A stretch of DNA of 61,467 bases from Acidimicrobiales bacterium (GCA_035553895.1 DATMJI010000035.1:1-61467), one strand, 5' to 3'; counted from the first letter of the stretch, positions 43,392 to 60,483 are shown. Made by a program: numbers and translations. The notes: a model not told the origin generated them from the letters alone.

Positions 43392-43393
43392 GG

Positions 43394-44164: not shown

Positions 44165-44268
44165 GGCGTCAGGTCCTCGACATCGAACCGGGAACGGCCG
44201 TGAGTGTCGTGCCCGCGCCCGCGTGCCTCGGGCTTCCGTAGGCCACGGCGTTCACGGTGACGCACCAG

Positions 44269-44308
44269 GCTGAGTCGGTGCTGAAGCCGAGCTGAAGGGT
44301 TGCTGAAG
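44269..44308 (+). promoter_or_regulatory. Four direct heptamer repeats, GCTGA(A/G)(G/T), at exact 11-bp phasing (candidate OmpR/PhoB-type binding array)
   Basis: GCTGAGT at 44269, and GCTGAAG at 44280, 44291 and 44302. The array lies in the divergent rfbF / response-regulator intergenic region. Confidence 0.45.
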
Positions 44309-44465
44309 CTGAGGACCCGAGGGTCGGGCGGGCGCTACGGTGCTCACTCGCTGAACAGGGGGCGACCGCACCGGCGCCACGAGCAGGAACGGTCGCCGAA
44401 CCGAGACAGGAGGCATCGTCGTTGCCAGGCCGTGGGGACTACCGATGCACGGCGGCGACAGGGCG

Positions 44466-45131
44466 ATGATGCGGGCACTGGTCTTCGAGGACGAGCCCGA
44501 GGTCCGGGAACTCGTGGCCGAGGCCCTCGGTCACGAGGGGTTCGATGTGCGGGCCGAGCCGGGGGGCAGCGATGCCGAGCAGGTGGTTGCCACCTTCCGG
44601 CCCGACATCGTCTTGCTCGACATCGGGCTGGGGGAGGGGCCCAACGGATTCGAAGTCGCCCGCCGCCTGCGCAGCGCCAGCGACGTGCCCATGGTCTTCG
44701 TCAGCGGCGCCCACGGCATCCGCGAGCGCCTGGCCGGCTTCGCTGCCGGCGGGGACGACTACCTCACCAAGCCCTTCGCCGTCGAGGAGCTGCTCGCCCG
44801 GGTTCGGGCCATCATGCAGCGCAGCGGGCGCGCCCCCCGCCGGGTGTGGAGGGTGGGCGACATGGTGGTCGACGAGGATGCCCACACCGTGGCCGTGGGC
44901 GATTCCCTGGTCGACCTCACGTCGATCGAGTTCGCCCTGCTCGTCACCCTCTGTCGCAACCCGGGCCGGGTTATGGCCAAGATCCAGCTGCTCAACGAGG
45001 TGTGGGGCTTCGACCAGTACTCCCTCAACCTGGTCGAGGTGCACGTGAGTGCCCTGCGGCGCAAGCTCGAAGCTCACGGTCCCCGGATGATCCACACCAT
45101 CCGCAACGTCGGCTACGTCCTGCGTCCCTGA
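44466..45131 (+). CDS. OmpR/PhoB-family response regulator
   Basis: The receiver domain reads MRALVFEDEPEVRELV...DIVLLDIGL...DDYLTKPF. The winged-helix domain reads LTSIEFALLVTLCRNPGRVMAKIQLLNEVWG...VEVHVSALRRKLE...IHTIRNVGYVL. Confidence 0.9.
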   Translation: MMRALVFEDEPEVRELVAEALGHEGFDVRAEPGGSDAEQVVATFRPDIVLLDIGLGEGPNGFEVARRLRSASDVPMVFVSGAHGIRERLAGFAAGGDDYLTKPFAVEELLARVRAIMQRSGRAPRRVWRVGDMVVDEDAHTVAVGDSLVDLTSIEFALLVTLCRNPGRVMAKIQLLNEVWGFDQYSLNLVEVHVSALRRKLEAHGPRMIHTIRNVGYVLRP

Positions 45132-45142
45132 GCGGCTTCAGC

Positions 45143-46474
45143 TCAATCGTCAACCGCCGGCAGGGTGCAGGACACCCGCAGACCGCCGTCGATGCCGTCG
45201 TCGACCCAGATGCGCCCGCCGTGGCGCTCCACCACCCGCTTGCAGATGGCCAGGCCCATGCCCGAGCCCGGCGGACCGGCCGAGCGATGCAGCCGGTGGA
45301 ACATGTGGAAGACGTCAGCCCGGTCCTGGGGGGCCACGCCGATGCCGTCATCGGCCACGGAGTAGACGTTCTGGTCTCCGACGCGGACCATGGAGACCTC
45401 GATGTGGACCCGTCAACCGGGCCGCCGGACCTTCAAGGCGTTGGCGATCAGGTTCTGGAAGAGCTGCACCAGCTGGGTCCGTTCCCCGGCCACCTTGCCC
45501 ATCGACGGCAGGCTCAGGCTGGCCCGGGCATCGAAGATGTCCGGCGCCAGGTGCTCGAGCACCTCGCCGATCACGTCGTTGCAGTCGACGATCTGGCGTG
45601 CCTGGTCGTCGCTCCCGGCCCGGCAGAAGGCGAGGATGTCGTCGATCATGCGCCCCATCGTTCCCACCTTGGCCAGTACCGCAGCCAGGTGGCGTTGCGA
45701 CTCGTGGCTCAGCTCCGACCCGCTGCGCCGGGCCAGGAGCTCGGCACTTCCGGCCAGGGCGGCCAGAGGTGCCCGTAGGTCGTGGGCGGCGATGTAGGCG
45801 AACTCGGAGAGCTCGCGGTTGGAGCCCTCGAGCTGCTCGGCCCGCAGCTCGGCCTCGGCCAGGGCGACCCACTGGGGATCACCCCGGGCATCGACCACCT
45901 TCGCCGGGCCGTCCGGGTCGTCGGTGGCCGGGTCGGCGCCGGCAGCGGTGGCGGGAGTGGCCTGACCGGCCAGCTCGAGCACCTGGCGGACGAACAGCGC
46001 CGAGAGGCCGGTGGCGTCGGAGCCGGAGGGGGCAAGATCGAGGCGCGAGCCCCGGACCAGCACCGTTGCCCCCTCGCCGGAGGGCCCGGGCCAGCGCTGT
46101 TCCAGCTCGTAGTGGGGGCGGGCCGGGCCGAGTCCCTTCATGGCCAGGTGCTCGAGGCGCAGCTCGTCCGGGTCCAGCCACTCGCCCAGGTGGTGCCCGG
46201 CCGAAGAGGTGGTGGCGCCGAGCAGCCGCTCGGTGGCACCGTCGCCCCACAGCACTCGCTGATCGGCGTCGACGATGGATATCGCTCCGTCCCAGGGCTC
46301 CCGGAAGACCGGGCGCCGGGGCTTCGAGCACGCCACCGGCTGGCGCCGGTATCCGCTTCTGGCTCCTCCCATGGCCAATCCCTCCCGCCTCTCCGGCTCC
46401 GTGTTCGGTTCGGTCTGCGAACCTGGATGAGACGTGCTGGCCCGCTCCTCACAGCACTGTGACTGATCTTCCAA
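45143..46474 (-). pseudogene. PAS sensor histidine kinase interrupted by an in-frame TGA (45413..45415)
   Basis: The H-box FAYIAAHDLRAPL and N-box LFQNLIANALKVRRPG lie upstream of the TGA. The G1 VADDGIGV and G2 GSGMGLAICKRVVERHGG boxes follow in the same frame. The junction reads KVRRPG*RVHIEVSMVRVGDQ. Confidence 0.6.
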
Positions 46475-46645
46475 CTCTTTCTACCAGAACCTCGGGCAAG
46501 TCCGTACGTATTAGACCACCCGCGTCCTAGGTCCCAAGTTCGCCAGTTTACGATCCTGTGTCGAACGCATGGCGCCGTCGACCTGTCCACCGCGACCGTG
46601 CCCGCCTTTGGCCTGGCCCGAGCCGTGTCACTAGTCTGAGCGAGA
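46475..46645. promoter_or_regulatory. Lower-GC divergent region upstream of nuoA (likely nuo promoter and leader)
   Basis: About 46480..46560 is visibly AT-richer than the surroundings (ccaactctttctaccagaacc...gtacgtattagacc...agtttacgatcc). I could not place -35/-10 boxes with any confidence. Confidence 0.3.
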
Positions 46646-47011
46646 GTGTCCGAGTTCCTCCGTGCGTACCTGACCGTGGCCGTCTTCGCGGGAGCGGCGG
46701 GCTTGCTCGTGGCGTTGCTCTCCGGCGTCGGGTGGGTCCTGCGCCCTTCTCGGCCCAGTCCCCAGAAGGCCATCGCCTACGAGAGCGGCGTCGATCCGGT
46801 GGGCCCCGGGTTCGGCCAGAGCCAGATCCGCTACTACATCTTCGCCCTCCTCTTCGTGCTCTTCGACGTCGAGGCGGTCTACATCTTTCCGTGGGCTCTG
46901 CGCCTGGAAGAGTACGGGGTCTTCGGCCTGGTGGAGATGGGCGTGTTCATCGTCATCCTCGCCCTCGGGCTGGTCTACGCCTGGCGCAAGGGGGTGCTGC
47001 GGTGGGTCTAG
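46646..47011 (+). CDS. nuoA: NADH-quinone oxidoreductase subunit A
   Basis: Carries [40 protein letters not shown]. The start is GTG. Confidence 0.9.
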
Positions 47012-47502
47012 TGGAGCGAGGGCGTTTACCCAAGCCGCTCACCCAGCTCCTCAACCTGAGCCGCAGCTACTCGCTGTGGGTCTACCAGTGGGGCCTGGCC
47101 TGCTGCGCCATCGAGATGGGGGCGTGCTTCGGATCTCCGCGCTACGACGTCATGCGCCTCGGGGTCATCCCCTTCCCGGCCAGTCCCCGCCAGGCCGACC
47201 TGGTGGTCATCTCCGGCACCGTGACCGACAAGATGGCGCCGGCCATCCGCCGGCTCTACGAGCAGATGCCCGACCCCAAGTACGTGATCTCCATGGGCAG
47301 CTGTGCCAACTGCGGCGGCCCCTACTGGGATTCCTACTCGGTGACCAAGGGGGTGGACCAGATCGTGCCGGTGGATGTCTACGTGCCGGGCTGCCCCCCC
47401 CGCCCCGAAGCGCTGCTCGAAGGCATCCTGTTGCTCCAGGAACGGATCCGGAACGAGGACATGGCCGAGCGGTGGCGAGGTGATCCCATTGTCGTCGCCT
47501 GA
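47011..47502 (+). CDS. nuoB: NADH-quinone oxidoreductase subunit B
   Basis: Carries [16 protein letters not shown]...[39 protein letters not shown]...[17 protein letters not shown] (cluster N2 cysteines). The GTG overlaps the nuoA TAG. Confidence 0.95.
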
Positions 47503-48682
47503 CGCCGGGGGCGGCGGGGCCGAGGACGATCGCCACCCGCCGGCGGAGGCCGTCACCGATCCCGATCTGGCGGCAGAGGTCGACAACCCCGCCGACGCCA
47601 ACCCGCCGACGGGTGAGCAGGCGGGACCGGCCAGCCCGGCGGCGGCCGACCAGGGGCCCATCGCCGCTCCCGGTGCCCCGGGGGAGCTGACCAGCGAGGT
47701 CACCCCGTCCCAGGGCGAGGAGCGGGGCGAGGCGACACCCGCCGGCGACGTGGGAGAGGTCCCCGGGGGCGATGCCGGTGCTCCCGAGTCCGGTGCCGGG
47801 CCGGCGGCGGCGCCCCCGGCGCCCGGGGGGGGACCGCCGGCGCCCAGCAGCGGCGGGTCCGGGCCCAGCGCCCTGGATCCCGAGCAGGAGGGCGCAGGGG
47901 GAGCGAGCCCGGCGGCCGTTGCCGTGCAGCGGGCCGCCGAGGACAAGGCGGCCCAGGCCGCGGCCGCCCGGGAGGCGGCGGCGGCGGCCGCTCCGGCGCC
48001 CAGCGTCGAGCCCGACGCCGAACCGGCCGCCCTCGACGAGGCCCGCCAGGAGCTGCTGGCCCGCCTGGGCACCGTCCTCGGGGCCGGGTTGGTCGAGTCC
48101 CACGTGGTGGCGGGCGTCGACGTCTGGGCCCGGGTGTCGGTCGAGGCTTGGCGCCTGGCGGCCGAGGCATGCCGTGACCAGCTCGGCCTCAGCTACTTCG
48201 ACTACCTCTCGGCCATCGATTGGCTCCCCTCCCCCTACGGCCGCAGCGAGGACCCTCCGCCGGCCGACGACCCCGAGGGGGGCGAGGCGGCCACGGGCGA
48301 CGCCGGCGGCGGTTCCGAGGCTCCGGCGGTGCTCGAGCACGGCTACGCCGGCGGCGAGACCCGCCTGCAGCTCCTGGCCCGGCTGGTGTCCCCGACCACC
48401 CATCTGGGAATGACCCTCAAGGCCGACATCGACGACGAGGCCCCGGTCGCCCCGTCGTGGGTCGAGGTCTACCCCGGTGCCGACTGGCACGAGCGCGAGG
48501 TCTGGGAGATGTACGGGATCGACTTCCGCGGTCATCCCAACCTGGTGCACCTGTACCTGCCGGGTGACTTCGAGGGCCACCCGCTGCGCAAGGACTTCCC
48601 GCTCCTGGCTCGCGAGGTCAAGCCGTGGCCCGGCCTGGTCGACGTGGAGGCCATGCCCGGCGAGGGGGACGGGGAGGGCTGA
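47480..48682 (+). CDS. nuoC: NADH-quinone oxidoreductase subunit C with an N-terminal low-complexity extension of about 180 aa
   Basis: The C-terminal part, [12 protein letters not shown]...[45 protein letters not shown], is canonical NuoC. The preceding about 180 aa are rich in Pro, Ala, Gly, Glu and Asp. The GTG at 47480 is the proposed start. Confidence 0.85.
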
Positions 48683-49851
48683 TGCCGGTCACCGAGCACC
48701 AGCAGCGGGCCTACATCGGGGGTCAGGCCGCCGACGCCCGGGTCAACGTCGAGCTCGAATCCGACGGCATGACCCTCAACATCGGCCCCCAGCACCCGGC
48801 CACCCACGGCACCCTGCGCATCATCACCCGCCTCGACGGGGAGCAGGTGATCTCGGCCGAACCGATGATGGGCTACATGCACCGGGGCTACGAGAAGCTG
48901 GCCGAGGTCCGTACCTACCCCCAGGTCACCACCCTGATCAACCGCATCGACTGGCTGGGCAGCTTCGCCAACGAGGTGCCCTTCATCCTGGCTGCCGAGC
49001 GGCTCATGGAGATCGAGGCCCCACCCCGGGCCCAGTGGATCCGCACCATCCTCTTCGAGCTCTCCCGCATCGCCAACATCACCCTGTTCCTCGGCGACAT
49101 GGGCGTGCAACTGGGGGCCATCACCGCCGTGTTCTACGCCTTCCGGGACCGTGAGCACGTGCTCAACCAGATCGAGGCGGCCACCGGGGGGCGCTTCCAC
49201 CCCAACTTCGACCGCATCGGCGGCCTGAAGGAGGATCTGCCCAAGGGCTGGGTGGCCGAGACCAAGGCGACCATGGCCAAGGTGCGGGAGTTCTGCGACG
49301 AGATGGAAACCCTGCTCATGGGCAACGAGATCTTCGAGACCCGCACGCGGGGCATCGGGGTGATCCCCGCCGACGTCGCCCTCGGCTACGGCCTCTCGGG
49401 GGCCAACCTGCGGGCCGCGGGAGTGGACTGGGATTTGCGCCGGGACGCACCCGGGCCGCTGGCGTGGTCCGAGGTGGACTGGAAGGTCTGGACCCACCCC
49501 GACGGCGACAGCTACGCCCGCTACTGGGTCCGGCTCCAAGAGACCAGGGAGGCGGCGGACATCGTCGACCAGCTCTGCGACGGGCTGCCCAGCGGCCCGA
49601 TCATGGCCAAGGTGCCCCGCATCATCAAGGTGCCGGCCGGCGAGGCCTGGGTGGCCACCGAGAACCCGCTCGGCGAGATGGGCTACTACGTGGTCAGCAA
49701 GGGCGACCTGGGGCCGTTCCGGGTCAAGATCCGCACCCCGTCCTTCTCCAACATCTCCGTGGTCCCCTGGGTCCTCAAAGGCGTCTACGTCCCCGACGTC
49801 ATCACCATCCTCGCCTCCCTCTACTTCATCCTCGGAGACATCGACCGATGA
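48682..49851 (+). CDS. nuoD: NADH-quinone oxidoreductase subunit D
   Basis: Carries MTLNIGPQHPATHGTLRIITRLDGE...GYMHRGYEKL...RVKIRTPSFSNI...LASLYFILGDIDR. The ATG overlaps the nuoC TGA. Confidence 0.95.
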   Translation: MPVTEHQQRAYIGGQAADARVNVELESDGMTLNIGPQHPATHGTLRIITRLDGEQVISAEPMMGYMHRGYEKLAEVRTYPQVTTLINRIDWLGSFANEVPFILAAERLMEIEAPPRAQWIRTILFELSRIANITLFLGDMGVQLGAITAVFYAFRDREHVLNQIEAATGGRFHPNFDRIGGLKEDLPKGWVAETKATMAKVREFCDEMETLLMGNEIFETRTRGIGVIPADVALGYGLSGANLRAAGVDWDLRRDAPGPLAWSEVDWKVWTHPDGDSYARYWVRLQETREAADIVDQLCDGLPSGPIMAKVPRIIKVPAGEAWVATENPLGEMGYYVVSKGDLGPFRVKIRTPSFSNISVVPWVLKGVYVPDVITILASLYFILGDIDR

Positions 49852-50077
49852 GGAGAGAACCTGCGCCGAAGGCGCACCTTCAGCCCTCTCTCCCCTCCTT
49901 CACAACTTGGGGTGAGCTGCTGCCGGTGGGGGTAGCCAGGGGGGTGCCGAGCGGGTGGCGGCGCGTAGCCGCACGGGTGGCACCGAGGGGAGGGGCCCAC
50001 CCGCCCGCAGCGCAGCGAGGACGGGTGGGAGGGAACCTCCTCGGTGACAGGACCCGTGCGGCGGGAGAGGTCGCGCC
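49852..50077. repeat. 226-bp non-coding spacer of nested palindromes between nuoD and nuoH, at the position occupied by nuoEFG in 14-gene operons
   Basis: Contains ctgcgcc-gaa-ggcgcac, cccacccg...cgggtggg, and ctctctcccctccttcacaacttggggtg, which resembles the reverse complement of the 58847 element flank. Codon usage across it is poor. Confidence 0.6.
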
Positions 50078-51112
50078 GTGCTGACCCTCGCTCTCGAGCT
50101 GGCTTACTGGCAACAGCTCACCATCAAGGTCCTCGCCATCCTGATCATCGTCCCCACGGCGACCGTCGTCATCGTGCAGACCTTCTTGTTCAAGACCATG
50201 GCCCACATGCAGAGCCGCCTCGGGCCCATGGAGGCCGGCCCCCACGGCCTGCTCCAGCTGGTGGCCGACGGGGCCAAGTTCGTCCAAAAGGAGCTGCTGG
50301 CGCCGGCTCAAGCCGACCGCCGGGTCTTCGCCCTGGCCCCGGTGGTGGTCTTGCTGTCGACCTTCCTGCTCTTCGTGGTCATCCCCGCCGGGCCCAGCGC
50401 CGTGGCCGAGGATCTCGACATCGGCATCTTCTTCGCCCTGGCCGTCTCTTCGATCTCCGTCCTCGGCATCCTCATGGCCGGCTGGTCGTCGGCCAACAAG
50501 TACGCCCTCATGGGCGGCCTGCGGGCCGCCGGCCAGCTCATCGCCTACGAGCTGCCGCTGGTGCTGGCCGTGGTGGGGGTGGTCATCCAGGCCGGGACGC
50601 TCAGCCTGCAGGGCATCGTGGCCGCCCAGGCCGAGGGCGAGATCTTCGGCGTGGGTCTGATCGGGCTGCCCTTCATCTTCACCCAGTTCGTGGGCTTCGC
50701 CCTCTTCCTGGTGGCGACCCAGGCCGAGCTCACCCAGCCGCCCTTCGACATGCCGATCGCCGAGTCCGAGCTGGTGGCCGGCTACCAGGTGGAGTACAGC
50801 GGCCTGCGGTTCCTGTTCTTCTACCTGGGCGAGTTCGGCGCCGCCTTCGCCTTCTCGGCCCTGGCCGCCACCATGTTCCTCGGGGGTTGGTATGTTCCGG
50901 GCCTGGACCTGGACGGGGGGCTGGTGTCCAACCTGGTGGGCCCAGGCGTGCTCTTCGCCAAGACCATGGTGGTGGCCTTCCTGATCTTTTGGATCCGCTT
51001 CACCTACCCTCGCCTGCGTGAGGACCAGCTGCAGACCTTCGCGTGGAAGTACCTGATCCCCCTGTCGCTGGCGAACATCCTGCTCACCGGCGTCTTCAAG
51101 GTCGCCTTCTAA
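50078..51112 (+). CDS. nuoH: NADH-quinone oxidoreductase subunit H
   Basis: Carries MAHMQSRLGPMEAGPHGLLQLVADGAKFVQKE...AELTQPPFDMPIAESELVAGYQVEYSG...YPRLREDQL. The start is GTG. Confidence 0.95.
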   Translation: MLTLALELAYWQQLTIKVLAILIIVPTATVVIVQTFLFKTMAHMQSRLGPMEAGPHGLLQLVADGAKFVQKELLAPAQADRRVFALAPVVVLLSTFLLFVVIPAGPSAVAEDLDIGIFFALAVSSISVLGILMAGWSSANKYALMGGLRAAGQLIAYELPLVLAVVGVVIQAGTLSLQGIVAAQAEGEIFGVGLIGLPFIFTQFVGFALFLVATQAELTQPPFDMPIAESELVAGYQVEYSGLRFLFFYLGEFGAAFAFSALAATMFLGGWYVPGLDLDGGLVSNLVGPGVLFAKTMVVAFLIFWIRFTYPRLREDQLQTFAWKYLIPLSLANILLTGVFKVAF

Positions 51113-51142
51113 TGTGCCGCCCATGAGAGGAGGTCTTGTCCC

Positions 51143-51619
51143 GTGCCAGCGCTACCCGGTCTGATCAAGGGCCTGGGCGTCACCCTGGGCACCATGCTGC
51201 GCCCGGCGGTCACCACCCAGTACCCCCACGTCAAGGAGGCCCCGCCGGCCCGCGCTCGGGGGGTCATCGCCCTCAAGGAGGAGAACTGCACCGTCTGCAT
51301 GCTCTGCGCCCGGCAGTGCCCGGACTGGTGCATCTACATCGAGGGCTACAAGACCAAAGCGCCGCCCCGGCGCGAGGGGGGTCGGCCCCGGACGGTGCAG
51401 CTCCTCGACCGTTTCGACATCGACTACTCGCTGTGCATGTACTGCGGGATCTGCGTGGAGGTCTGTCCCTTCGACGCCCTGTTCTGGAGCCCCGACTACG
51501 AGTACTCCGAGCCTCGCATCGCCGACCTGCTCCACGACAAGGACCGCTTGGGTGAGTGGATGGAAGGCGTGCCCGAGCCCCTCCCCCTCGAAGCCGGCGC
51601 CGTCGCCGGGAAGAAGTAG
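51143..51619 (+). CDS. nuoI: NADH-quinone oxidoreductase subunit I (2x[4Fe-4S])
   Basis: Has the cluster motifs [12 protein letters not shown] and [12 protein letters not shown]. Confidence 0.95.
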
Positions 51620-51626
51620 CCCTGCG

Positions 51627-52145
51627 GTGCTGGCCCAGAACCTCTCCTTCGCCGTCCTGGCCACCGTGGCCACCGTCGCCGCCTTGCGGGTGGTGAGCAC
51701 GCGCAACGTGGTCCATGCGGCGCTGTACCTGGTGGTGGTGCTGGCCAGCGTGGGCGCCCTCTACGTGCTGTTGGCGGCCGAGTTCGTGGCTGCCGTGCAG
51801 ATCCTCATCTACATCGGGGCCATCGTCGTGCTGTTCCTCTTCGGGATCATGCTCACCCGACCCACGATCGGCAGCGAGCACGGTCTGGACAACGACCAGC
51901 GCTGGATGGCCGGGGTCACGGGCCTCTTGTTGTTGGGACTGCTCTCCTTCGTGCTGGTCGACGGCTTCGGGGACCGCCAGCTTCCCCGTCTCGACGGGAT
52001 GAGCCGGGAGGCCCTGACCGCCGAGCGGGGAACGGCGGCGGTGGCCGACTCCATCTTCTCCACCTACCTCGTCCCCTTCGAAGCCGTCTCCATCCTGTTG
52101 CTGGCCGCCCTCGTCGGGGCCATCGTGTTGGCCCGGCGCGACTGA
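51627..52145 (+). CDS. nuoJ: NADH-quinone oxidoreductase subunit J
   Basis: The GTG at 51627 gives [72 protein letters not shown]. Confidence 0.9.
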
Positions 52146-52160
52146 TGGCTGGCACTGCCC

Positions 52161-52208
52161 TTCTGGCCCCACAAGTGGTCGCGATAGCGACCACTTGTGG
52201 GGCCAGAA
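52161..52208. repeat. Perfect 22-bp stem / 4-nt loop hairpin between nuoJ and nuoK
   Basis: ttctggccccacaagtggtcgc-gata-gcgaccacttgtggggccagaa. It is followed by GGGGGAGGG 6 nt upstream of the nuoK ATG. Confidence 0.9.
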
Positions 52209-52245
52209 CACCGGGGTGGGCCCGCCGCGGCGGGGGAGGGCATCC

Positions 52246-52554
52246 ATGCTGGTGAACCAGTTCCTGATCCTCGGTGCCGTGCTGTTCTGCATCGGGGTCT
52301 ACGGGGTGCTGGCTCGGCGCAACGGAGTGCTGGTGCTCATGTCCATCGAGCTCATCCTCAACGCCGTGAACATCAACCTCATCGCCCTGGGCGCCCTGCA
52401 GGGACCCGAGGCTGCCGTCACCGGGCAAGTCTTCTCCCTGTTCGTCATCACCATCGCCGCTGCCGAGGTGGGGGTGGGCCTGGCCATCGTGCTGCTCATC
52501 TACCGCAACCGGACCACCGTCGACCTCGACGAGGTCGACCTCATGAAGGGATAG
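52246..52554 (+). CDS. nuoK: NADH-quinone oxidoreductase subunit K
   Basis: Reads [47 protein letters not shown]...[22 protein letters not shown]. Confidence 0.95.
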
Positions 52555-52566
52555 GGGAGCGCACCG

Positions 52567-54723
52567 GTGCTCGAGAACATCTGGGTGGTCCCTGGCCTCA
52601 CCTTCGCCTCCTTCTGGCTGATCCTGTTCTTCGGCAAGCGCCTGCCCAAGGGCGGTGCCGAGATCGGCATCGCTGCCGTGGGCCTGGCCTTCGTGCTCTC
52701 CAGCGTGGCGGTCGTCGAGTGGAACGACCGGCCGGCCACCGAGGAGGTCGAGGCGGTGAGCACCGGCGAGCACGGCGAAGCCGAGGCCCACGGCTCGGAG
52801 CCCGATGCCCACGAAGAGGCCGAAGACGAGCACTCCTTCGGCGAGGTGCGGGCGCTGGCGGTCGATCTGGCCGCCGCCGAGGCGGGTGAGGGGGAGGCCG
52901 GCGAGCACGAGGCCGAGCCCATCCGCAGCGCCGTGGAGCGCAACCTCACCTGGTTCTCCTTCGGCGGGGTGGACATCACCGTGGGCACCGCCGTCGACGG
53001 GCTGACGGTGATCCTGCTGTTCACCGTCACCCTGATCTCGCTTTTGGTGCACGTCTTTTCCACCAACTACATGCACGGTGACGTGCGCTTCACCTACTTC
53101 TTCGCCGCCCTGTCCCTCTTCACCACCGGGATGCTGCTGCTGGTGGTGTCGTCGAGCCTGCTCCAGGCCCTCTTCGGCTGGGAGCTGATGGGGTTGTGCA
53201 GCTTCATGCTGATCGGCCACTGGTGGGAGAAGAAGCCGAACTCCGACGCCGCCATGAAGGCGTTCCTCACCACTCGCACCGGTGACATCGGACTGCTCGT
53301 GGGCCTGGTCATCATGTTCTTCGCCGCCGGCCAGACCTTCGACATCGCCGCCGTCAACGAGGCCGCCCTCACCGGTGCCATGGGGGAGACCGTCCTGCTG
53401 GTGGGCGCCTCGGCCCTGTTCGTCGGGGTCATCGGCAAGTCGGCCCAGTTCCCCCTCCACACCTGGCTGCCCGACGCCATGGCCGGTCCCACCCCGGTGT
53501 CCGCCCTCATCCACGCCGCCACCATGGTGGTCGCCGGTGTCTACCTGGTGGCCCGGCTCTACGGGGTCTTCTGGTCGGCCTTCGACATCGAGGCGGGAGG
53601 GGTCAACCCCATCGCCGTCATCGGCGGGATCACCGTGCTGATCGCCGCCGCCCTGGCCTTCGTGCAGACCGACATCAAGAAGGTGCTGGCCTACTCCACC
53701 GTCAGCCAGCTGGGGTACATGGTCATGGCCCTCGGCGTGGGGGCCTGGACGGCGGCCATCTTCCATCTCTTCACCCATGCCTTCTTCAAGGGCCTGCTGT
53801 TCCTGGGTGCCGGCTCGGTGAGCCACGCCGTGCACAGTTTCGAGATGCGAGACGACATGGGGGGCCTACGCAAGTTCATGCCCACCACGTTCGTGACCTT
53901 CATGATCGGATCGCTGGCGCTCGCCGGAGTCTTCCCGCTGGCCGGATTCTGGTCCAAGGACGAGATCCTCCTGGGGGCGGCCGAGAACGGCTACCGCCTC
54001 TTCGAGGTGGTCGGGCTCATCGGCGCCTTCATGACCGCCGCCTACATGACCCGCTGCGTGTACCTCACCTTCTTCGGCAGCTACCGGGGGCACGGCCACC
54101 CCCACGAGTCGCCCCCACCCATCACCGTTCCCCTGATCATCCTGGCCGTCTTCTCGGTGGGCGCCGGCCTGCTCAACGCCCCGGGGTTCGAGAAGTTCTT
54201 CGAGTTGACCGAGAACCGGGTGTTCCTCCTGGCCGGGATCGAGCATCACAGCTTCGAGATCGTTCCCGCCGTGGTCTCGAGCGTGGTGGTGCTGGCTGCC
54301 CTCGCCCTGGGAGGCCTGCTGTTCTTCGCCGGCCGGCTGCCCCGGGGCGTGACCGCCCGCAGCCGGGCCGCCCGGGCCGGCTACCGGCTGCTGGCCAACA
54401 AGTACTACCTGGACCACCTCTACACCGGGGTGGTGGTGGGATCGATCAAGGGCCCCATCGCCCGGGCCGCCTACTGGGCCAACCAGAAGGTGATCGACGG
54501 GGTGGTCAACGGGGTGGGCGTGGCGTCCACGCGGGCCGGACTGTGGGTCTACCGCCACATCGACCAGCGGGTGGTCGACGGTGCCGTCAACGGTGCCGGC
54601 TTCGGGGCGGAGGGCTTCGGCGGGATTTTGCGCACCATCCAGACCGGGCGCGTCCAGCAGTACGGGGCCCTGCTCTTCGGAGCCACCGCCGTGCTTGCCC
54701 TCGGCCTCGTCATCTTCGTCTAG
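52567..54723 (+). CDS. nuoL: NADH-quinone oxidoreductase subunit L (copy 2, in operon) with a His/Glu/Asp-rich insert of about 70 aa
   Basis: Carries GWELMGLCSFMLIGHWW...KSAQFPLHTWLPDAMAGPTPVSALIHAATMVVAGVYL. The insert is EEVEAVSTGEHGEAEAHGSEPDAHEEAEDEH...GEGEAGEHEAEP, after the second TM helix. Confidence 0.9.
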   Translation: MLENIWVVPGLTFASFWLILFFGKRLPKGGAEIGIAAVGLAFVLSSVAVVEWNDRPATEEVEAVSTGEHGEAEAHGSEPDAHEEAEDEHSFGEVRALAVDLAAAEAGEGEAGEHEAEPIRSAVERNLTWFSFGGVDITVGTAVDGLTVILLFTVTLISLLVHVFSTNYMHGDVRFTYFFAALSLFTTGMLLLVVSSSLLQALFGWELMGLCSFMLIGHWWEKKPNSDAAMKAFLTTRTGDIGLLVGLVIMFFAAGQTFDIAAVNEAALTGAMGETVLLVGASALFVGVIGKSAQFPLHTWLPDAMAGPTPVSALIHAATMVVAGVYLVARLYGVFWSAFDIEAGGVNPIAVIGGITVLIAAALAFVQTDIKKVLAYSTVSQLGYMVMALGVGAWTAAIFHLFTHAFFKGLLFLGAGSVSHAVHSFEMRDDMGGLRKFMPTTFVTFMIGSLALAGVFPLAGFWSKDEILLGAAENGYRLFEVVGLIGAFMTAAYMTRCVYLTFFGSYRGHGHPHESPPPITVPLIILAVFSVGAGLLNAPGFEKFFELTENRVFLLAGIEHHSFEIVPAVVSSVVVLAALALGGLLFFAGRLPRGVTARSRAARAGYRLLANKYYLDHLYTGVVVGSIKGPIARAAYWANQKVIDGVVNGVGVASTRAGLWVYRHIDQRVVDGAVNGAGFGAEGFGGILRTIQTGRVQQYGALLFGATAVLALGLVIFV

Positions 54724-54751
54724 CCAGGAAAAAAGGAGACACACCGACCTC

Positions 54752-56281
54752 ATGGACGGCCTCGACGACATCGCCCTGACCGCTGCGGTCTTCCTGCCCC
54801 TGGTCGGCGTGTTGGCCATGATGTTCACGCCTCGCCAGCACGAGGCCGACCACAAGGTCATGGCGCTCATCGCCACGCTGGCCACATTCGGAGTGGGCGT
54901 CTACCTCCTGTTGCGCTTCGACTACGCCAGAGCCGACGCTCTGCAGTTCGACGTCGACGCCTCGTGGATCGAGGTCATCAACAGTCGCTACATCCTCGGC
55001 GTCGACGGCATCTCCCTGCCGCTGCTGGTGCTGTCGATGTTCGTCTGCGTGCTGGTCGTCGTCTACTCCTGGAACCACTTCCCGGAGCCGCACAACCCCA
55101 AGGCCTTCCTCATCTTGATCCTCATCCTCGAGACCGGGATGAACGGCACCTTCGTAGCCCAGGATCTCATCTTGTTCTTCGTGTTCTTCGAGGTCGTGCT
55201 CCTGCCCATGTACTTCATGATCGGCGTCTGGGGTGGCGAGCAGCGCCAGTACGCGGCCATCAAGTTCTTCCTCTTCACCCTCTTCGGCTCGGCACTGATG
55301 ATCCTCAGTTTCCTGGCCCTGTTCTTCCAGGGGGGCCAGACGTTCGCCATCGCCGAGCTGGTGGCGGTGGCCTCCGACAACATCCCCCGGTCCACCCAGA
55401 TCCTGATCTTCGGCGGGCTGTTCATGGGCTTCGCCATCAAGGTGCCGATGTTCCCCTTCCACACCTGGCTTCCCGACGCCCACACCCAGGCCCCGACCCA
55501 AGGATCGGTGATCCTGGCCGCCATCCTCCTCAAGCTGGGCACCTACGGCTTCGTGCGCATCGCCATTCCCATCCTGCCGGAGGCGGCCCAAGCCTGGGCC
55601 CCCTGGATCGGCGGCCTGGCGGTGATCGGCATCATCTACGGCGCCCTGGGCTGCCTGGCCCAGTCGGACATGAAGCGCCTCATCGCCTTCTCGTCGGTGG
55701 CCCACATGGGCTACGTCATGCTCGGCATCGCTACCCTCACCGACTTCGGCATCAACGCCGCCGTGTTCGGCATGGTGGCGCACGGCCTCATCACCGGGAT
55801 GTTGTTCTTCGTGGCCGGCTCGGTGAAGGACCGCTTCCACACCCTGGAGCTCTCCCGTCTCGGCGGCCTGCTCATCCAGTCGCCCCGGATGGGCTGGATC
55901 CTCGGGTTCTGTGCCATGGCCTCCCTCGGCCTGCCCGGCCTGGCCGGCTTCTGGGGGGAGTTCCCGGTCATCCTGGCCGCCTACAACCCGGCCGAGGGCC
56001 TGTCGGTCGGGCTGTTCCGCGGCTACATGGTGGTGGCGGCGGTGGGGACCGTCTTCGCCGCCGGCTACCTGCTGTGGATGTTCCAGCGAGCCGCCTTCGG
56101 TACCCCCAAAGAGGAGTTCGCCGACACCCCCATCCCGGGCATGCACTGGCCCGAGTACGTGGCCTGGACCCCGATGCTGGTGCTGATCGTGGTCCTCGGG
56201 CTGTTTCCCAACCTGCTCTTCGGGCTCACTGACGGCGCCGTGGGCACGGCGCTGGCCGCCTTCGGAGGGGGAGGGAACTAA
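54752..56281 (+). CDS. nuoM: NADH-quinone oxidoreductase subunit M (copy 2)
   Basis: An AAAAGGAGAC RBS precedes the ATG at 54752. Carries FFVFFEVVLLPMYFMIGVWGGEQRQYAAIKFFLFT...FAIKVPMFPFHTWLPDAHTQAPTQGSVILAAILLKLGTYG. Confidence 0.95.
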   Translation: MDGLDDIALTAAVFLPLVGVLAMMFTPRQHEADHKVMALIATLATFGVGVYLLLRFDYARADALQFDVDASWIEVINSRYILGVDGISLPLLVLSMFVCVLVVVYSWNHFPEPHNPKAFLILILILETGMNGTFVAQDLILFFVFFEVVLLPMYFMIGVWGGEQRQYAAIKFFLFTLFGSALMILSFLALFFQGGQTFAIAELVAVASDNIPRSTQILIFGGLFMGFAIKVPMFPFHTWLPDAHTQAPTQGSVILAAILLKLGTYGFVRIAIPILPEAAQAWAPWIGGLAVIGIIYGALGCLAQSDMKRLIAFSSVAHMGYVMLGIATLTDFGINAAVFGMVAHGLITGMLFFVAGSVKDRFHTLELSRLGGLLIQSPRMGWILGFCAMASLGLPGLAGFWGEFPVILAAYNPAEGLSVGLFRGYMVVAAVGTVFAAGYLLWMFQRAAFGTPKEEFADTPIPGMHWPEYVAWTPMLVLIVVLGLFPNLLFGLTDGAVGTALAAFGGGGN

Positions 56282-56283
56282 GC

Positions 56284-57780
56284 ATGCCCTTCGACTCTCC
56301 ATCGCTCGACTACCACGCCTTCGCCCCGGAGATCGTCCTCGTCGCCACCCTGGTCGTCCTGCTCTTCGTCGATCTGGTCTTCGAGGAGCGGGCCCGGTGG
56401 GCCACCTCCACCGTCGCCGGCGTGGGGCTGCTGGCCAGCGTGGTGCCCGTGCTCACCCTGGCCGTCGACGGGGCCGACCGCGGGCTCTTCGACGGCGCCT
56501 ACGTCGTCGACAATTTCGCCCTCGTGCTCAAGGCCCTGTTCCTGGCCGCGGGGTACGTGACCGTGCTCATCAGCACCGACTACATCGGCGACGGCGACTA
56601 CTACGAGGGCGAGTACTACTTCATGCTGGTGTCGTCGCTGCTGGGCATGACCTTGATGGCGTCGTCGCGCGACCTCATCAGCATCTTCGTCTCCCTCGAG
56701 CTCCTCTCCATCCCCGCCTACCTGCTGGCCGGCTGGCGCAAGCGGGACCTGCGGGGCAACGAGGCGTCGCTCAAGTACTACCTGCTCGGGGTCTTCGCCT
56801 CGGCGGTGATGCTCTACGGGATGTCGCTGGTCTTCGGGGTGACCGGGTCCACCGTGCTCGTCGAGATCGGTGACGTCCTGGCCGGTGGCATCGGCGCGGC
56901 ACCGCTGGTGACGGTGGGGATCGTCTTCATCGTCGTCGGCTTCGCCTTCAAGGTGTCGGCCGTCCCCTTCCACGCCTGGGCCCCCGACACCTACGAGGGG
57001 GCCCCGACCCCCATCACCGCCTTCCTGTCGGTTGCCTCCAAAGCGGCCGGCTTCGTCGCCCTGGTGCAGCTCGTCTTCATCGCCTTCCTCGGGCGCGACG
57101 ACGTGTGGGCCCCGATGTTCTGGCTGCTGGCCGCCGTCACCATGACGGTCGGCAACCTCATCGCCCTGCGCCAGACCAACGTGGTGCGCCTGCTCGCCTA
57201 CTCCTCGGTCGCCCAGGCCGGCTTCATGCTGGCGCCCTTCGCCGTGGCCGCAGACATCCCGGTCGATCGGGGCGGTGTCGCGGCCGCCACCGGCGCTGTG
57301 ATCACCTACCTGCTCATCTACGCCGCCATGAACCTGGGTGCCTTCGCCGTGGTCATGGCCGTGGCCCGCCGGACCCGCTCGGCCGAGCTCGGCTCGCTGG
57401 CCGGGCTGTTCTCCTACGCGCCCGGCCTGGCCGTGCTCATGTCCGTCTTCTTCTTCGCCCTGGCCGGCATCCCCCCGCTGGCTGGCTGGTACGCCAAGTT
57501 CGTGGTGTTCAAGGTCCTGCTCGACGCCGGCAACGCCGCCGCCGTCACCCTCGGGGTCATCGCCGCCGTCAACTCGGTGATCGCCCTGTTCTACTACGCC
57601 TCGGTGGCCCGGCACATGCTGCTCGACCCGGCCGCGGGCACGGACACCAGCCGGGTGCGCGTCCCCGCTTCGCTGGGAGCGGCCCTCGGCCTGTGCGCCC
57701 TGGCCACCCTGGCTTTCGGGGTCCTCCCCGGCCTCATCGCCGAGCTGGGCGACGTCGCCCTCTTCGGCCTCCTCCCCTGA
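56284..57780 (+). CDS. nuoN: NADH-quinone oxidoreductase subunit N (copy 2)
   Basis: Carries DLISIFVSLELLSIPAYLLAGW...ASLKYYLLGVFASAVMLYGMSLVFG...FKVSAVPFHAWAPDTYEGAPTPITAFL. Confidence 0.95.
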   Translation: MPFDSPSLDYHAFAPEIVLVATLVVLLFVDLVFEERARWATSTVAGVGLLASVVPVLTLAVDGADRGLFDGAYVVDNFALVLKALFLAAGYVTVLISTDYIGDGDYYEGEYYFMLVSSLLGMTLMASSRDLISIFVSLELLSIPAYLLAGWRKRDLRGNEASLKYYLLGVFASAVMLYGMSLVFGVTGSTVLVEIGDVLAGGIGAAPLVTVGIVFIVVGFAFKVSAVPFHAWAPDTYEGAPTPITAFLSVASKAAGFVALVQLVFIAFLGRDDVWAPMFWLLAAVTMTVGNLIALRQTNVVRLLAYSSVAQAGFMLAPFAVAADIPVDRGGVAAATGAVITYLLIYAAMNLGAFAVVMAVARRTRSAELGSLAGLFSYAPGLAVLMSVFFFALAGIPPLAGWYAKFVVFKVLLDAGNAAAVTLGVIAAVNSVIALFYYASVARHMLLDPAAGTDTSRVRVPASLGAALGLCALATLAFGVLPGLIAELGDVALFGLLP

Positions 57781-57817: not shown

Positions 57818-59038
57818 ATGAGCAGTGCGACGCCCGAGCGAGCCGACAAGGAACGGGAGGGGGTGCCGGTCGACGAGTTCCTGGACGAGGCGCTGTACGG
57901 GCCGGCGGGCTTCTACACCAGGGGCGGCGGTGCCGGCCGCCGGGGTGACTTCCTAACCAGTCCCGAAATCGGCGGCCTGTTCGGCGCGGTAGTGGCCCGC
58001 GCCCTCGACGCCACCTGGGACGACCTGGGCCGTCCCGACCCCTTCACGGTGGTCGAAGCAGGAGCCGGGCGGGGGGCTTTGGCCCGGTCGGTCCTGGACA
58101 GCGCCCCGGCGTGCGCCGGGGCGCTGCGGTACTGGTGCGTCGAACGTTCGCCGGTGCTGCGCCGCCTGGCCGGGGAGGTGGCGGGCACCCGGGCCGCCGG
58201 CCGCTTCCCGGCCGGGCCCCTCACCGGCGTGGTGGTGGCCAACGAGCTGCTGGACAACCTGGGCTTCCGCCTCCTCGAACGCCGGCCCGGCGGCTGGGCC
58301 GAGGTGCTGGTCGCCGGAGGCGGCTCCGAGGTGGTGGTTCCGGCCCTGCCCGAGGCCGCCGAGCGGGCCGCGGTCCTGGCCCCCGAGGCCGACGCCGGGG
58401 CCCGGATCCCGCTCCAGGACCGGGCCGCCTCCTGGCTGGCCGCGGCCCTGGCCGCCCTCCAGCGGGGGAAGCTGGTGGTCGTGGACTACGCCGACGTGAC
58501 CCCCTCGCTGGCCCGGCGCCCGTGGCGGGACTGGGTGCGGACCTACCGGGGCCAGCAGCGGGGCGGCCACCCCTGGGCCGACCCGGGGAGCCACGACGTC
58601 ACCTGCGAGGTGGCGGTCGACCAGTTGGCCGCCGTGCGCCCACCGGACCGGGACCGCAGCCAGGCCGAGTGGCTGGCCGCCCACGGTGTGGACGACCTGG
58701 TGGCCGAGGCCCGGGCCACCTGGCACGAGCGGGCCCAGGTCGGCGACCTGGCCGCCCTGGCCGCCCGCAGCCGGGTGGGGGAGGCGGCCGCCCTCTGCGA
58801 CCCGGCCGGCCTGGGCGCCTTCCGCGTCCTCGAGTGGGACGTCCCCGCCCCGGCATCCCTGCGAACTGGTGGCAGAAGCGGGGCCGGTTCGGCCCCGCAT
58901 CTGCCACCAATTGGCCGAAGGGGGGAGGGAGCCACCGGGGCGGGCGCCCCGGCATCCCTGCGAACTGGTGGTAGAAGCGGGGCCGGTTCGGCCCCGCATC
59001 TACCACCAATTGGCCCGCGGGGGGAGGGAGCGAGGTGA
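57818..59038 (+). CDS. MidA/NDUFAF7-family (DUF185) SAM-dependent methyltransferase whose 3' end reads through two palindromic repeats
   Basis: Carries FLDEALYGPAGFYTRGGGAGRRGDFLTSPEIGGLFGAVVARAL...VVEAGAGRGALARSVL...VVANELLDNL. The last about 66 codons are the 99-bp tandem repeat and use rare codons. Confidence 0.75.
   Translation: MSSATPERADKEREGVPVDEFLDEALYGPAGFYTRGGGAGRRGDFLTSPEIGGLFGAVVARALDATWDDLGRPDPFTVVEAGAGRGALARSVLDSAPACAGALRYWCVERSPVLRRLAGEVAGTRAAGRFPAGPLTGVVVANELLDNLGFRLLERRPGGWAEVLVAGGGSEVVVPALPEAAERAAVLAPEADAGARIPLQDRAASWLAAALAALQRGKLVVVDYADVTPSLARRPWRDWVRTYRGQQRGGHPWADPGSHDVTCEVAVDQLAAVRPPDRDRSQAEWLAAHGVDDLVAEARATWHERAQVGDLAALAARSRVGEAAALCDPAGLGAFRVLEWDVPAPASLRTGGRSGAGSAPHLPPIGRRGEGATGAGAPASLRTGGRSGAGSAPHLPPIGPRGEGAR
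58847..59030. repeat. Tandem duplication (period 99 bp) of a palindromic element with an about 22-bp stem, subfamily 2
   Basis: Copy 1 starts at 58847 and copy 2 at 58946. The stems are 58867..58909 and 58966..59008. The copies differ by the paired change C58873/G58903 to T58972/A59002, plus gaa to cgc in the flank. Confidence 0.9.
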
Positions 59039-60483
59039 GTACGCGGGCGGCGGCGGTGCTGGTGTTCTGCACCTCGGCGGCGGTGCTGGTGATCGAGATC
59101 CTGGCCGGGCGCCTGGTGGCGCCCTACGTCGGGGTGTCGATCGAGACCTTCACCGGGGTCATCGGCACCATCCTGGCCGGCATCGCCCTCGGCAGCGCCG
59201 CCGGCGGGCGCCTGGCCGACCGCTACGACGCCCGGCGGCTGGTGGGTCCGGCCGTCGCGGCCGGTGGCCTCGCCGCCCTGGTGTCGCTGCCGGTCGTGTC
59301 GGCGGTCGGGCCGGTGGTGCGCGGCGGTGGGCCGGCGGCCATCGTCGCCCTGGCCGGTGGCGCCTTCTTCCTCCCGGCGGCGGTGCTCAGCGCCGTCGGC
59401 CCCATGGCCGCCCAGCTGCGCCTGGCCAGCCTGGCCGAAACCGGCTCCGTGGTCGGTGGCCTCTCGGCGGCCGGGACCGCCGGCGCCCTCTTCGGCACCT
59501 TCGTGACCGGCTTCGTGCTGGTGGCCACCGTTCCCACCCGCCCCCTGGTGGTGGCCCTCGGTGTCGCCCTGGTGGTGGCCGGAGCGGGCCTGTGGTGGCG
59601 GTTGGGTACCACCCGGGTGCCGACGGCGGGCCTGTCGGTGGTCCTGGTCGCCGCCACCGGCCTCTCGCTGGCCGTGCCCGGCCCGTGCGGGGAACACACC
59701 GTCTACTACTGCGCTCGCGTCGAGGTCGACCCGTCCCGGCCCTCGGGCCGGGTCCTGATCCTCGACACGCTGCGCCACAGCTACGTCGACCTCGAGGACC
59801 CTACCTACCTGGAGTTCCGCTATGTGCGGCTCTTCGCCGACATGGTCGAGCTCCAGCTCGGGGGTGATCGAGCCGTCGACGCCCTGCACCTGGGGGGTGG
59901 GGGATTCAGCTTCCCCCGCTACCTGGCTACCACCCGGCCGGGCTCCACCAGCCTGGTCCTGGAGATCGACGGTGGGTTGGTCGACCTGGCCCGGGACGAG
60001 CTCGGCCTGCGTACCGGCGACGACCTGGCGGTGCGGGTGGGCGACGCCCGTACCGCCCTGGCCGAGTTGGCGGATGACCGCTACGACGTGGTGGTAGGCG
60101 ACGCCTTCGGCAGCTTGTCGGTGCCCTGGCACCTGGCCACCCGGGAGGTGGCGGCCGAGATCACGCGGGTCCTGCGGCCCGGGGGCGTCTACCTGGCCAA
60201 CGTCATCGACGGTGGCCCGAACCGCCTGGTCCGGGCCGAGGTGGCCACCCTCGCCGCCGAGTTCGCCAACGTGGCCGTCGTCGTCCCGCCGGCCGGGACG
60301 GGCGATGCTCCCGCCAACTACGTCCTCGTGGCCTCCTCCGGCCCGATCACCTCGGCCCTCGCCGCCTACGACGCCACCGACGGCGTCGCCCTCACCGGAG
60401 CCGAAGTGGACGCCTTCGTCGACGGTGCCCGGCCCCTCACCGACGACTTCGCCCCGGCCGACCAGCTCCTCACCCGGGGCTGA
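59035..60483 (+). CDS. Fused polytopic membrane domain and spermidine-synthase-like (class I methyltransferase fold) protein
   Basis: The N-terminal about 200 aa form multiple TM helices (AAVLVFCTSAAVLVIEILAGRL...). The C-terminal part reads ALHLGGGGFSFPRYL...DVVVGDAFGSLSVPWHLATREV...LRPGGVYLANV. It forms a GTGA overlap with the upstream stop. Confidence 0.75.
   Translation: MSTRAAAVLVFCTSAAVLVIEILAGRLVAPYVGVSIETFTGVIGTILAGIALGSAAGGRLADRYDARRLVGPAVAAGGLAALVSLPVVSAVGPVVRGGGPAAIVALAGGAFFLPAAVLSAVGPMAAQLRLASLAETGSVVGGLSAAGTAGALFGTFVTGFVLVATVPTRPLVVALGVALVVAGAGLWWRLGTTRVPTAGLSVVLVAATGLSLAVPGPCGEHTVYYCARVEVDPSRPSGRVLILDTLRHSYVDLEDPTYLEFRYVRLFADMVELQLGGDRAVDALHLGGGGFSFPRYLATTRPGSTSLVLEIDGGLVDLARDELGLRTGDDLAVRVGDARTALAELADDRYDVVVGDAFGSLSVPWHLATREVAAEITRVLRPGGVYLANVIDGGPNRLVRAEVATLAAEFANVAVVVPPAGTGDAPANYVLVASSGPITSALAAYDATDGVALTGAEVDAFVDGARPLTDDFAPADQLLTRG

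Follow-up and report, generated by a model that had tools for sequence, protein, structure and literature searches.

An eleven-gene nuo operon without nuoEFG in an Acidimicrobiales genome: a probable second complex-I-like paralogue with an altered NuoD acceptor site

Eleven-subunit enzymes resembling complex I are widespread, and no donor common to them has been identified (Moparthi and Hagerhall 2011, PMC3144371). In Ca. Actinomarinales, which belong to the Acidimicrobiia, a 14-gene nuo operon, an 11-gene nuo operon lacking nuoEFG and NDUFAF7 have already been described (PMC7771536; bioRxiv 10.1101/2021.02.01.429150). The truncated operon has the order nuoABCDHIJKLMN, is followed by NDUFAF7 and accompanies a full 14-gene operon. 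Here, we analysed a 61,467-bp stretch of DNA (the window) from Acidimicrobiales bacterium GCA_035553895.1. The window is one whole contig (DATMJI010000035.1, GC content ~72%) of an NCBI third-party annotation (TPA) metagenome-assembled genome (MAG), and its proteins include HWH34046.1, HWH34061.1 and HWH34069.1. On the plus strand, positions 46646-57780 carry an operon of the same eleven-gene order, which we call nuo-11; nuo-14 denotes the canonical 14-gene complex I. As originally submitted, the finding is ordinary, since nuo operons without EFG are widespread and the set of 14-gene operon, 11-gene operon and NDUFAF7 is already published for Acidimicrobiia. The overall explanation that we favour, and consider rather probable, is that nuo-11 represents an Acidimicrobiia-wide second nuo paralogue, encoding an 11-subunit redox-driven proton pump without an NADH module of its own.

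Gene identities were taken from Pfam matches far above the curated cut-offs, and the starts of the genes are the same as those called independently on an ENA contig bearing the identical operon. NuoA, B, C, D, H, I, J, K, L, M and N are encoded contiguously in this order (Table 1). All eleven open reading frames (ORFs) are intact and have a strong coding signature, with a GC content at third codon positions (GC3) of 0.89-0.95. The N2 cysteines of NuoB and two CxxCxxCxxxCP motifs in NuoI could be read from the sequences; the ligands of clusters N2 (NuoB) and N6a/N6b (NuoI) are all retained, as are the pump Glu/Lys residues in NuoA, K, L, M and N. Pfam and these motifs together confirm the eleven-gene nuoABCD-HIJKLMN operon with canonical motifs that a preliminary description of the window had reported. 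Its statement that nuoD ends at 49851, that nuoH starts at 50078 and that no E, F or G gene is present in the window also holds, as a Pfam scan of ~50 ORFs spanning the window revealed no NuoE, NuoF or NuoG domain. NuoD shows none of the NiFe-ligating cysteine pairs of membrane-bound hydrogenases: it has an N-terminal GPQHPATHG and the C-terminus LGDIDR, and no CxxC pairs.

A scan of a genome collection with NuoD yielded at least 593 relatives, of which the best 80 were kept; these are all Acidimicrobiia (Actinomycetota), with 79-91% identity. Synteny was determined by local tblastn on the ~80 related loci, and the order A-B-C-D-H-I-J-K-L-M-N was found in all of them. Many loci have a second H-I-J-K-L-M-N set immediately upstream, which is only ~40% identical for H to K. 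The canonical nuoN lies at most 5.3 kb upstream of nuoA of nuo-11 in 36 of the 60 loci with enough upstream sequence (84 bp in the closest case), and an NDUFAF7-like gene follows nuoN of nuo-11 in 38/51 related loci. At least one carrier, Aquihabitans sp. McL0605 (locus L009; NZ_CP188252.1), is in culture. NuoD is 79-95% identical across the class (more than 590 Acidimicrobiia genomes), and nuo-11 is under strong purifying selection. This selection, combined with intact cluster ligands and intact pump residues, argues for an active redox-driven proton pump. A decaying duplicate without function might be suspected from the loss of a catalytic Tyr and Asp in NuoD and from low-complexity inserts in NuoC and NuoL (see below). 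However, the ORFs are intact and have a strong coding signature, the substituted NuoD residues are themselves near-invariant throughout the class, and every cluster ligand and pump residue is kept. This conservation effectively refutes decay, to which we give almost no credence.

The preliminary description overlooked three further antiporter-like genes at 32714-37792, one of NuoL type and two more with a Proton_antipo_M domain. Its members are orthologues of nuoL, nuoM and nuoN in the upstream canonical set of relatives. The NuoL of this trio is 84% identical to the NuoL encoded in the operon B-C-D-E-F-G-H-I-J-K-L-M-N of the close relative GCA_019348495.1, a canonical operon with NuoE, F and G Pfam domains that is followed after ~50 bp by nuoA of nuo-11. 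The gene that precedes the canonical nuoL in the window is a folC-like Mur-ligase gene and not nuoK. The same folC-nuoL junction occurs in two independent contigs, one from JGI (identical NuoL) and one from MAG GCA_038220145.1 (NuoL 87% identical), and another contig of the latter MAG carries nuoC-D-E-F-G-H-I-J-K followed by ndk-mreB-mreC-mreD-PBP2. The split of the canonical operon thus looks like an inversion with breakpoints nuoK/nuoL and folC/ndk that is common to a sublineage. Between the canonical nuoN and nuoA of nuo-11 the window has ~9 kb, compared with 84-200 bp in some relatives; this region (37859-46480) holds a FecR-like gene, a sugar-modification cassette (two C-methyltransferases, an epimerase and a nucleotidyl transferase) and a two-component system.

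The remainder of the canonical operon was traced through NuoF. A 90%-identity NuoF cluster, seeded from the NuoF of GCA_038220145.1, includes HWH34433.1 from a TPA 'Acidimicrobiales bacterium' MAG. The contig encoding it (22.7 kb) carries nuoC-K and then ndk-mreBCD; its beginning is cut off before nuoC, with nuoA and nuoB beyond its edge. This NuoF contig was recovered from ENA ERZ27256747, JGI 3300028040 and JGI 3300072976, and the same three samples gave parts of the window, namely the nuo-11 operon or its NuoD (ERZ27256747, 3300072976) and the folC-nuoLMN segment (3300028040). Furthermore, HWH34433.1 falls in the same accession series as HWH34046, HWH34061 and HWH34069 of the window. Based on the accession series and the three shared samples, nuoE, nuoF and nuoG are very probably encoded in the same genome, on another contig and within the canonical complex I. 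Besides the nuo-11 paralogue, a complex I that oxidises NADH is therefore very probably present in the organism, and we are confident that nuo-11 is a paralogue that coexists with canonical complex I. The lack of nuoEFG in the organism that the preliminary description implied is not supported, as NuoF (HWH34433.1) and E/G are encoded on the canonical nuoC-K contig, very probably of the same MAG. It had also named, as an outcome that would speak against it, nuoEFG found elsewhere and co-purifying with the complex; the first half of this, genes for E/F/G located elsewhere, was what we found.

With both operons very probably in one genome, the canonical NuoE/F/G might dock on either Q/P-module, in which case nuo-11, too, would oxidise NADH but would differ in its acceptor or in its pumping. 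The two operons are arranged in tandem, sometimes 84-194 bp apart, and are probably co-transcribed, and EFG are very probably present in the same MAG. The subunits that contact NuoG, however, differ strongly, which argues weakly against such sharing: in nuo-11 versus the canonical enzyme, NuoI has 158 versus 239-244 aa, NuoC 400 (variable) versus 161-164 aa and NuoD 389 versus 442-443 aa, and the two NuoD proteins are only ~40% identical. In addition, the EFG genes moved away in this lineage while nuo-11 stayed intact. A shared N-module is therefore an unlikely, although not far-fetched, explanation.

The 226-bp spacer between nuoD and nuoH was originally described as a palindromic non-coding gap at the position where nuoEFG sit in 14-gene operons. 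Its non-coding, palindromic character holds: it contains no ORF with a coding signature and many inverted repeats, and its predicted fold is better than those of shuffled sequences (z = -3.2). Searches of these 226 bp for a consensus promoter or terminator, and against Rfam, gave no match. Its interpretation as the position of EFG does not hold. Across 72 related loci the nuoD-nuoH distance varies between -16 and +169 bp (median ~2), and the 226 bp of the window are the longest. Only part of the spacer is common to the nearest relative in the collection (locus L005; 78% identity over 108 bp), and a JGI contig (L002) whose NuoD is 100% identical to that of the window has no spacer at all, its nuoH overlapping the nuoD stop codon (ATGATG). 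Because the spacer recurs in other assemblies it is real. It is a lineage-specific expansion and not a former EFG site, as D and H normally abut. Two other interpretations were rejected. A functional element or a deletion scar of EFG does not agree with a spacer that is tiny or absent in most relatives and in the contig with identical NuoD, and that lacks Rfam, promoter and terminator matches; mis-assembly, of either the spacer or the folC-nuoL junction, does not agree with the recurrence of both in other assemblies.

In L002 the N-terminus of nuoH is clearly diverged (L002 1814-1945 versus window 50078-50210). Together with the identical NuoD, this suggests either that NuoD is extremely constrained or that parts of the operon have recombined. 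Four relatives carry islands of 3-5.7 kb between nuoH and nuoI (L032 4451-9643; L034 12230-17983; L044 12290-15331; L057 12192-17892). Their cargo comprises AAA_21/AbiEii-like ATPases, Uma2 endonucleases, SDR, PhyH and similar genes and looks defence-like or mobile. These islands were considered as a location of hidden donor genes and rejected, since the ATPase, Uma2, SDR and PhyH cargo is unrelated.

Unusual positions were observed in NuoD. Residues were assigned by a gap-free HMMER alignment to Thermus thermophilus Nqo4, alignment columns were counted over 201 orthologues and four canonical paralogues, and the codons were checked in the window. In Nqo4, Tyr87 and the His38/Asp139 pair were described as proton donors for quinone reduction (PMC5552823). 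The His of this pair is retained in 201/201 nuo-11 NuoD proteins (His42 in the window) and in the canonical paralogue of the four genomes. At the Tyr87 position all 201 have Trp (window Trp91, 48952-48954), whereas the canonical paralogue has Tyr. At Asp139 we found Gln in 197 and His in 4 (window Gln143, 49108-49110) against a canonical Asp, and at His129 Ile, Val, Leu or Met (window Ile133) against a canonical His. The canonical Tyr87 and His38-Asp139 arrangement is thus not present in NuoD of nuo-11. The nearest outgroup, an Actinomarinales-type locus, likewise has Trp87, combined with Glu139 and His129. In a wider survey of the best 150 representatives of 50%-identity clusters, most of them without names, Trp at this position was also found sporadically in more distant homologues, among them NuoCD proteins from Methanonatronarchaeales and Ca. 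Methanofastidiosia. No natural Tyr87-to-Trp variant was found in the literature searched, although such variants may have been reported elsewhere. Judged from these alignments, the acceptor pocket of nuo-11 is unusually remodelled.

In nuo-11 the quinone Tyr, supposed to be invariant, and its partner Asp are thus replaced naturally and throughout the class. The canonical paralogue in the same genome could serve as an internal control for such a Q-site variant, which bears on quinone protonation and on the coupling mechanism. It is tempting to go further and to regard the nuo-11 clade as a mechanistically distinct class of complex-I-like enzymes that does not reduce quinone by the textbook mechanism. 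This proposal, which we consider possible but doubtful, is based on the replacement of the two canonical proton donors (Tyr87 by Trp, Asp139 by Gln/Glu), on a mitochondrion-like methyl-arginine system and on a lateral helix long enough for a fourth pump subunit. If true, enzymes of such a class might have a different acceptor or a different binding pose, operate backwards towards ferredoxin, or recruit an extra antiporter subunit. As a separate observation, one further locus (L094, 10001-11179) has an orphan NuoD-like gene without other nuo genes, with Trp at the Tyr87 and Ala at the Asp139 position. It is situated among folate-biosynthesis and ftsH genes, and a Methyltransf_28 gene lies 6.5 kb off.

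The Trp in NuoCD of methanogen-related archaea (Methanonatronarchaeales, Ca. Methanofastidiosia) could also be taken as a hint at an Fpo-like F420H2 dehydrogenase that receives electrons from F420H2 through an unlinked FpoF/FrhB-like subunit, and F420H2 was suggested for Ca. Actinomarinales (PMC7771536). On the other hand, neither the window nor the surroundings of the operon in the related loci inspected showed a domain resembling FpoF, FrhB or FpoO, and the similarity to Fpo is low, ~35% (PMC7771536). We therefore hold F420H2 to be an improbable donor.

A second set of substitutions concerns a residue that is methylated in mitochondria. NDUFAF7 dimethylates Arg85 of bovine NDUFS2, which corresponds to a Thr in the Thermus sequence (PMC3750175, PMC3829151); this residue was equated with Nqo4 Thr64 by the bovine-Thermus numbering offset of 21 together with PMC3750175. 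The nuo-11 NuoD has Arg at this position in 201/201 cases (window Arg68, 48883-48885). Its NuoB has Thr at the position of Nqo6 Arg83 (ISGTVT, compared with VAGRVS in the canonical paralogue). In the canonical paralogue the situation is reversed, with Thr in NuoD and Arg in NuoB. These NuoD and NuoB positions were described as evolutionarily coupled (PMC5552823). The methyltransferase encoded directly downstream of nuo-11 matches the PDB entries 4f3n, 1zkd and 5ztz, the last being the Dictyostelium NDUFAF7 homologue. By residue identity, the expected NDUFAF7 substrate is thus offered by NuoD of nuo-11 only and not by canonical NuoD, and the NDUFAF7-like protein is probably a maturation factor for the former. 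The Arg/Thr swap tracks the linked NDUFAF7 gene, which would provide a clean bacterial model for the methylation that accompanies mitochondrial assembly.

Aligned pairwise with its canonical counterpart on the same contig, NuoL shows two inserts. One, acidic and of low complexity, comprises ~70 aa in the loop between transmembrane helices (TM) 2 and 3 (residues ~47-120, ~52705-52926); the other, a 27-aa insert in the lateral-helix region (residues 658-684, 54538-54618), duplicates an IDGxVNG segment. A lengthened C-terminal tail of 107-111 aa was observed in 37 loci, and the insert is also found in the Actinomarinales-type locus L093. In an AlphaFold2 (AF2) model of NuoL the TM core is confident and the insert is helical, but residues 589-702 have a predicted local distance difference test (pLDDT) score below 50. 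NuoC has a Pro/Ala/Gly/Glu-rich N-terminal extension of ~190 aa as well as a low-complexity insert inside the protein; in relatives, between 680 and 1200 bp separate the nuoB end from the nuoD start. Since it is a low-complexity segment of variable length, the NuoC extension is not a defining feature. Of the traits previously taken to indicate a specialised complex, the conserved NuoL inserts and the linked NDUFAF7-like gene consequently stand, and the NuoC extension falls away.

The lateral-helix insert resembles, in size and location, a 26-aa insertion in NuoL which passages of PMC9040806 and PMC6606698, citing Chadwick et al. 2018, give as the hallmark of the '2M' complex I. For the Nitrospira '2M' enzyme a reverse reaction was proposed, in which the proton-motive force drives electrons from menaquinol to ferredoxin, and nuo-11 might operate likewise. 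According to the same passages (PMC9040806, PMC6606698), at least one 2M cluster is without several N-module genes, and ferredoxin reduction is proposed. Several points weigh against a reverse-running nuo-11. Only one nuoM is present, so the defining second pump subunit is missing, and the modelled insert is of low confidence. No obvious ferredoxin-demanding pathway, such as the reverse tricarboxylic acid cycle, was seen, and these lineages are mostly heterotrophic. Membership in the '2M' group was rejected, as nuoK and the methyltransferase gene are separated by nuoL, nuoM and nuoN alone, with no second nuoM. Reverse operation of nuo-11 appears quite unlikely.

For a forward-running pump without its own NADH module, ferredoxin is our tentative choice of donor, made by analogy. 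Among solved structures, NuoH is best matched by plastid/cyanobacterial NdhA and NuoL by NdhF; for NuoD the best match is Thermus and the second is cyanobacterial NdhH. Ferredoxin is favoured because of this mild NdhA/NdhF affinity and because it is a known or proposed donor of other 11-subunit enzymes. These include cyanobacterial NDH-1 and Fpo-like complexes. The same applies to the 11-subunit enzyme of Desulfitobacterium hafniense (PMC11238625). In the proposed mechanism, NuoI would accept electrons from a soluble carrier of low potential, for which reduced ferredoxin is the most likely candidate. Clusters N6a, N6b and N2 would relay them to an acceptor in the membrane, presumably menaquinone, whose binding would be non-canonical. 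During assembly, the NDUFAF7-type methyltransferase would methylate Arg68 of NuoD.

Some of our observations weigh against this explanation. Loss of the proton-donating Tyr and of the Asp of the His-Asp pair leaves the usual quinone reduction, or any, uncertain. No gene for a donor or docking subunit (NdhS/V/O-like, FpoF-like or flavodoxin) was found within or next to the operon, either in the window or in the 80 related loci, and the assignment of ferredoxin draws only on analogy and a weak similarity ranking. The earlier view that the donor is not identifiable from sequence is thus borne out, with no donor module in or beside the operon here or in ~80 relatives. A shared N-module would likewise agree with the close tandem arrangement of nuo-11 and nuo-14. 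Finally, the membership of the EFG contig in the same genome is deduced from MAG binning, accession order and co-occurrence and not from a closed genome. The cultured Aquihabitans sp. McL0605 makes the donor question of 11-subunit complexes accessible to experiment.

Table 1. Coordinates of the nuo-11 operon, its spacer and downstream gene, and the canonical nuo genes in the window.
Feature	Position	Strand	Details
nuoA	46646-47011	+	121 aa; PF00507 E = 2.8e-34; FDVE motif retained
nuoB	47002-47502	+	166 aa; PF01058 E = 1.4e-29; N2 cysteines, PGCPP motif; Thr at Thermus Nqo6 Arg83 position
nuoC	47480-48682	+	400 aa; PF00329 E = 1.5e-28
nuoD	48682-49851	+	389 aa; PF00346 E = 8e-78
nuoD-nuoH spacer, GC-rich, structured, non-coding	49852-50077	.	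inverted repeats, fold z = -3.2
nuoH	50078-51112	+	344 aa; PF00146 E = 4e-101
nuoI, short form, two 4Fe-4S motifs	51143-51619	+	158 aa; Fer4 families
nuoJ	51627-52145	+	172 aa; PF00499 E = 1.3e-38
nuoK	52246-52554	+	102 aa; PF00420 E = 2.1e-28; both membrane Glu retained
nuoL	52567-54723	+	718 aa; PF00361 + PF00662
nuoM, single copy	54752-56281	+	509 aa; PF00361 E = 1.3e-74; TM5 Glu, TM7/TM8 Lys, TM12 Glu retained
nuoN	56284-57780	+	498 aa; PF00361 E = 3.8e-68; pump Glu/Lys retained
NDUFAF7/MidA-family S-adenosylmethionine (SAM) methyltransferase gene	57818-59038	+	406 aa; PF02636 (Methyltransf_28), 92.6 bits vs cut-off 23.3
canonical nuoL, displaced from its own operon	32714-34660	+	PF00361 + PF00662
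canonical nuoM	34660-36195	+	PF00361 + synteny
canonical nuoN	36251-37792	+	PF00361 + synteny

Other genes of the window were also recorded. A second methyltransferase (59035-60483, plus strand; 482 aa, hydrophobic N-terminus, Methyltransf_11) overlaps the stop codon of the NDUFAF7-like gene; relatives do not conserve it at this position, and there acetyl-CoA synthetase often comes directly next. A histidine kinase gene on the minus strand (45143-46474) is divergent from nuoA, and an in-frame TGA at 45413-45415 places HisKA and HATPase_c in separate ORFs. The gene calls of the ENA contig show the same split, which may reflect a pseudogene, readthrough at the TGA or a kinase that is truly split. 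The region 2082-10700 has 77-79% GC and contains long ORFs (3601-5388, 5502-6302 and 8837-10708) with coding-like GC3 and no Pfam match. A minus-strand gene at 16309-17472 encodes a protein with S-layer homology (SLH) domains, which are uncommon in Actinomycetota. Two tRNA genes (26946-27016 and 27116-27187, minus strand) lie just upstream of tig-clpP-clpX, and the locus has a single clpP.

Among known systems, the 'ancestral' 11-subunit enzymes (PMC3144371), for example that of D. hafniense (PMC11238625), share with nuo-11 the lack of an N-module, of NiFe cysteines and of a designated donor gene, and NuoC extensions were also reported in some of them. In contrast to these enzymes, nuo-11 coexists, usually in tandem, with canonical complex I, and has the linked NDUFAF7 and a longer NuoL helix; the Trp-for-Tyr exchange may be a further difference. 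Cyanobacterial and plastid NDH-1, a ferredoxin:plastoquinone enzyme, likewise has an 11-subunit core without E/F/G and an Arg at the mitochondrially methylated NuoD position. Its NdhH keeps Tyr87, Asp139 and His129, unlike NuoD of nuo-11, and no Pfam domains of the oxygenic-specific NDH-1 subunits (NdhL-Q, S, V) were found among the window ORFs. In canonical 14-subunit Nuo, E/F/G are encoded with the complex, whereas the nuo-11 operon is without them and a separate canonical cluster has them. Campylobacter-type complex I retains NuoG, and its NuoE and NuoF are replaced by two unrelated genes; the nuo-11 operon differs from this pattern in having no gene between nuoD and nuoH. Archaeal Fpo and Fpo-like complexes also have an 11-subunit core, and some NuoCD have Trp87. 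They differ from nuo-11 by FpoF/FpoO (none here), while nuo-11 has a bacterial host and presumably uses menaquinone; identity is 36-40%.

Mitochondrial complex I with NDUFAF7 (PMC3829151, PMC3750175) resembles nuo-11 in the Arg at the NDUFS2 Arg85 position and in the Thr at the partner position of PSST/NuoB. In contrast, nuo-11 is bacterial and without an N-module, and the methylation of its NuoD is a prediction. With the Nitrospira-type '2M' enzyme nuo-11 shares a lengthened NuoL lateral helix (27 aa here versus 26), the geometry of which is modelled here at pLDDT < 50. The closest known system is that of the Actinomarinales. The nearest outgroup NuoD cluster (L093, 56% identity) lies in the published Actinomarinales context and shares Trp87, Arg68 and the NuoL insert with the window. 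The window differs by the absence of heliorhodopsin, Fe-uptake, htpX, rhodanese and pfkB neighbours, by Gln instead of Glu at Asp139 and Ile instead of His at His129, by the split canonical operon and by its GC content (~72% versus 33%). In the literature searched, we did not find reports of the Trp91/Gln143 acceptor site, of an Arg/Thr swap that tracks NDUFAF7 linkage, of a conserved lateral-helix insert without a second NuoM, or of the split canonical operon. These features give the locus, beyond its likeness to the described systems, a moderate interest for the mechanism of complex I.

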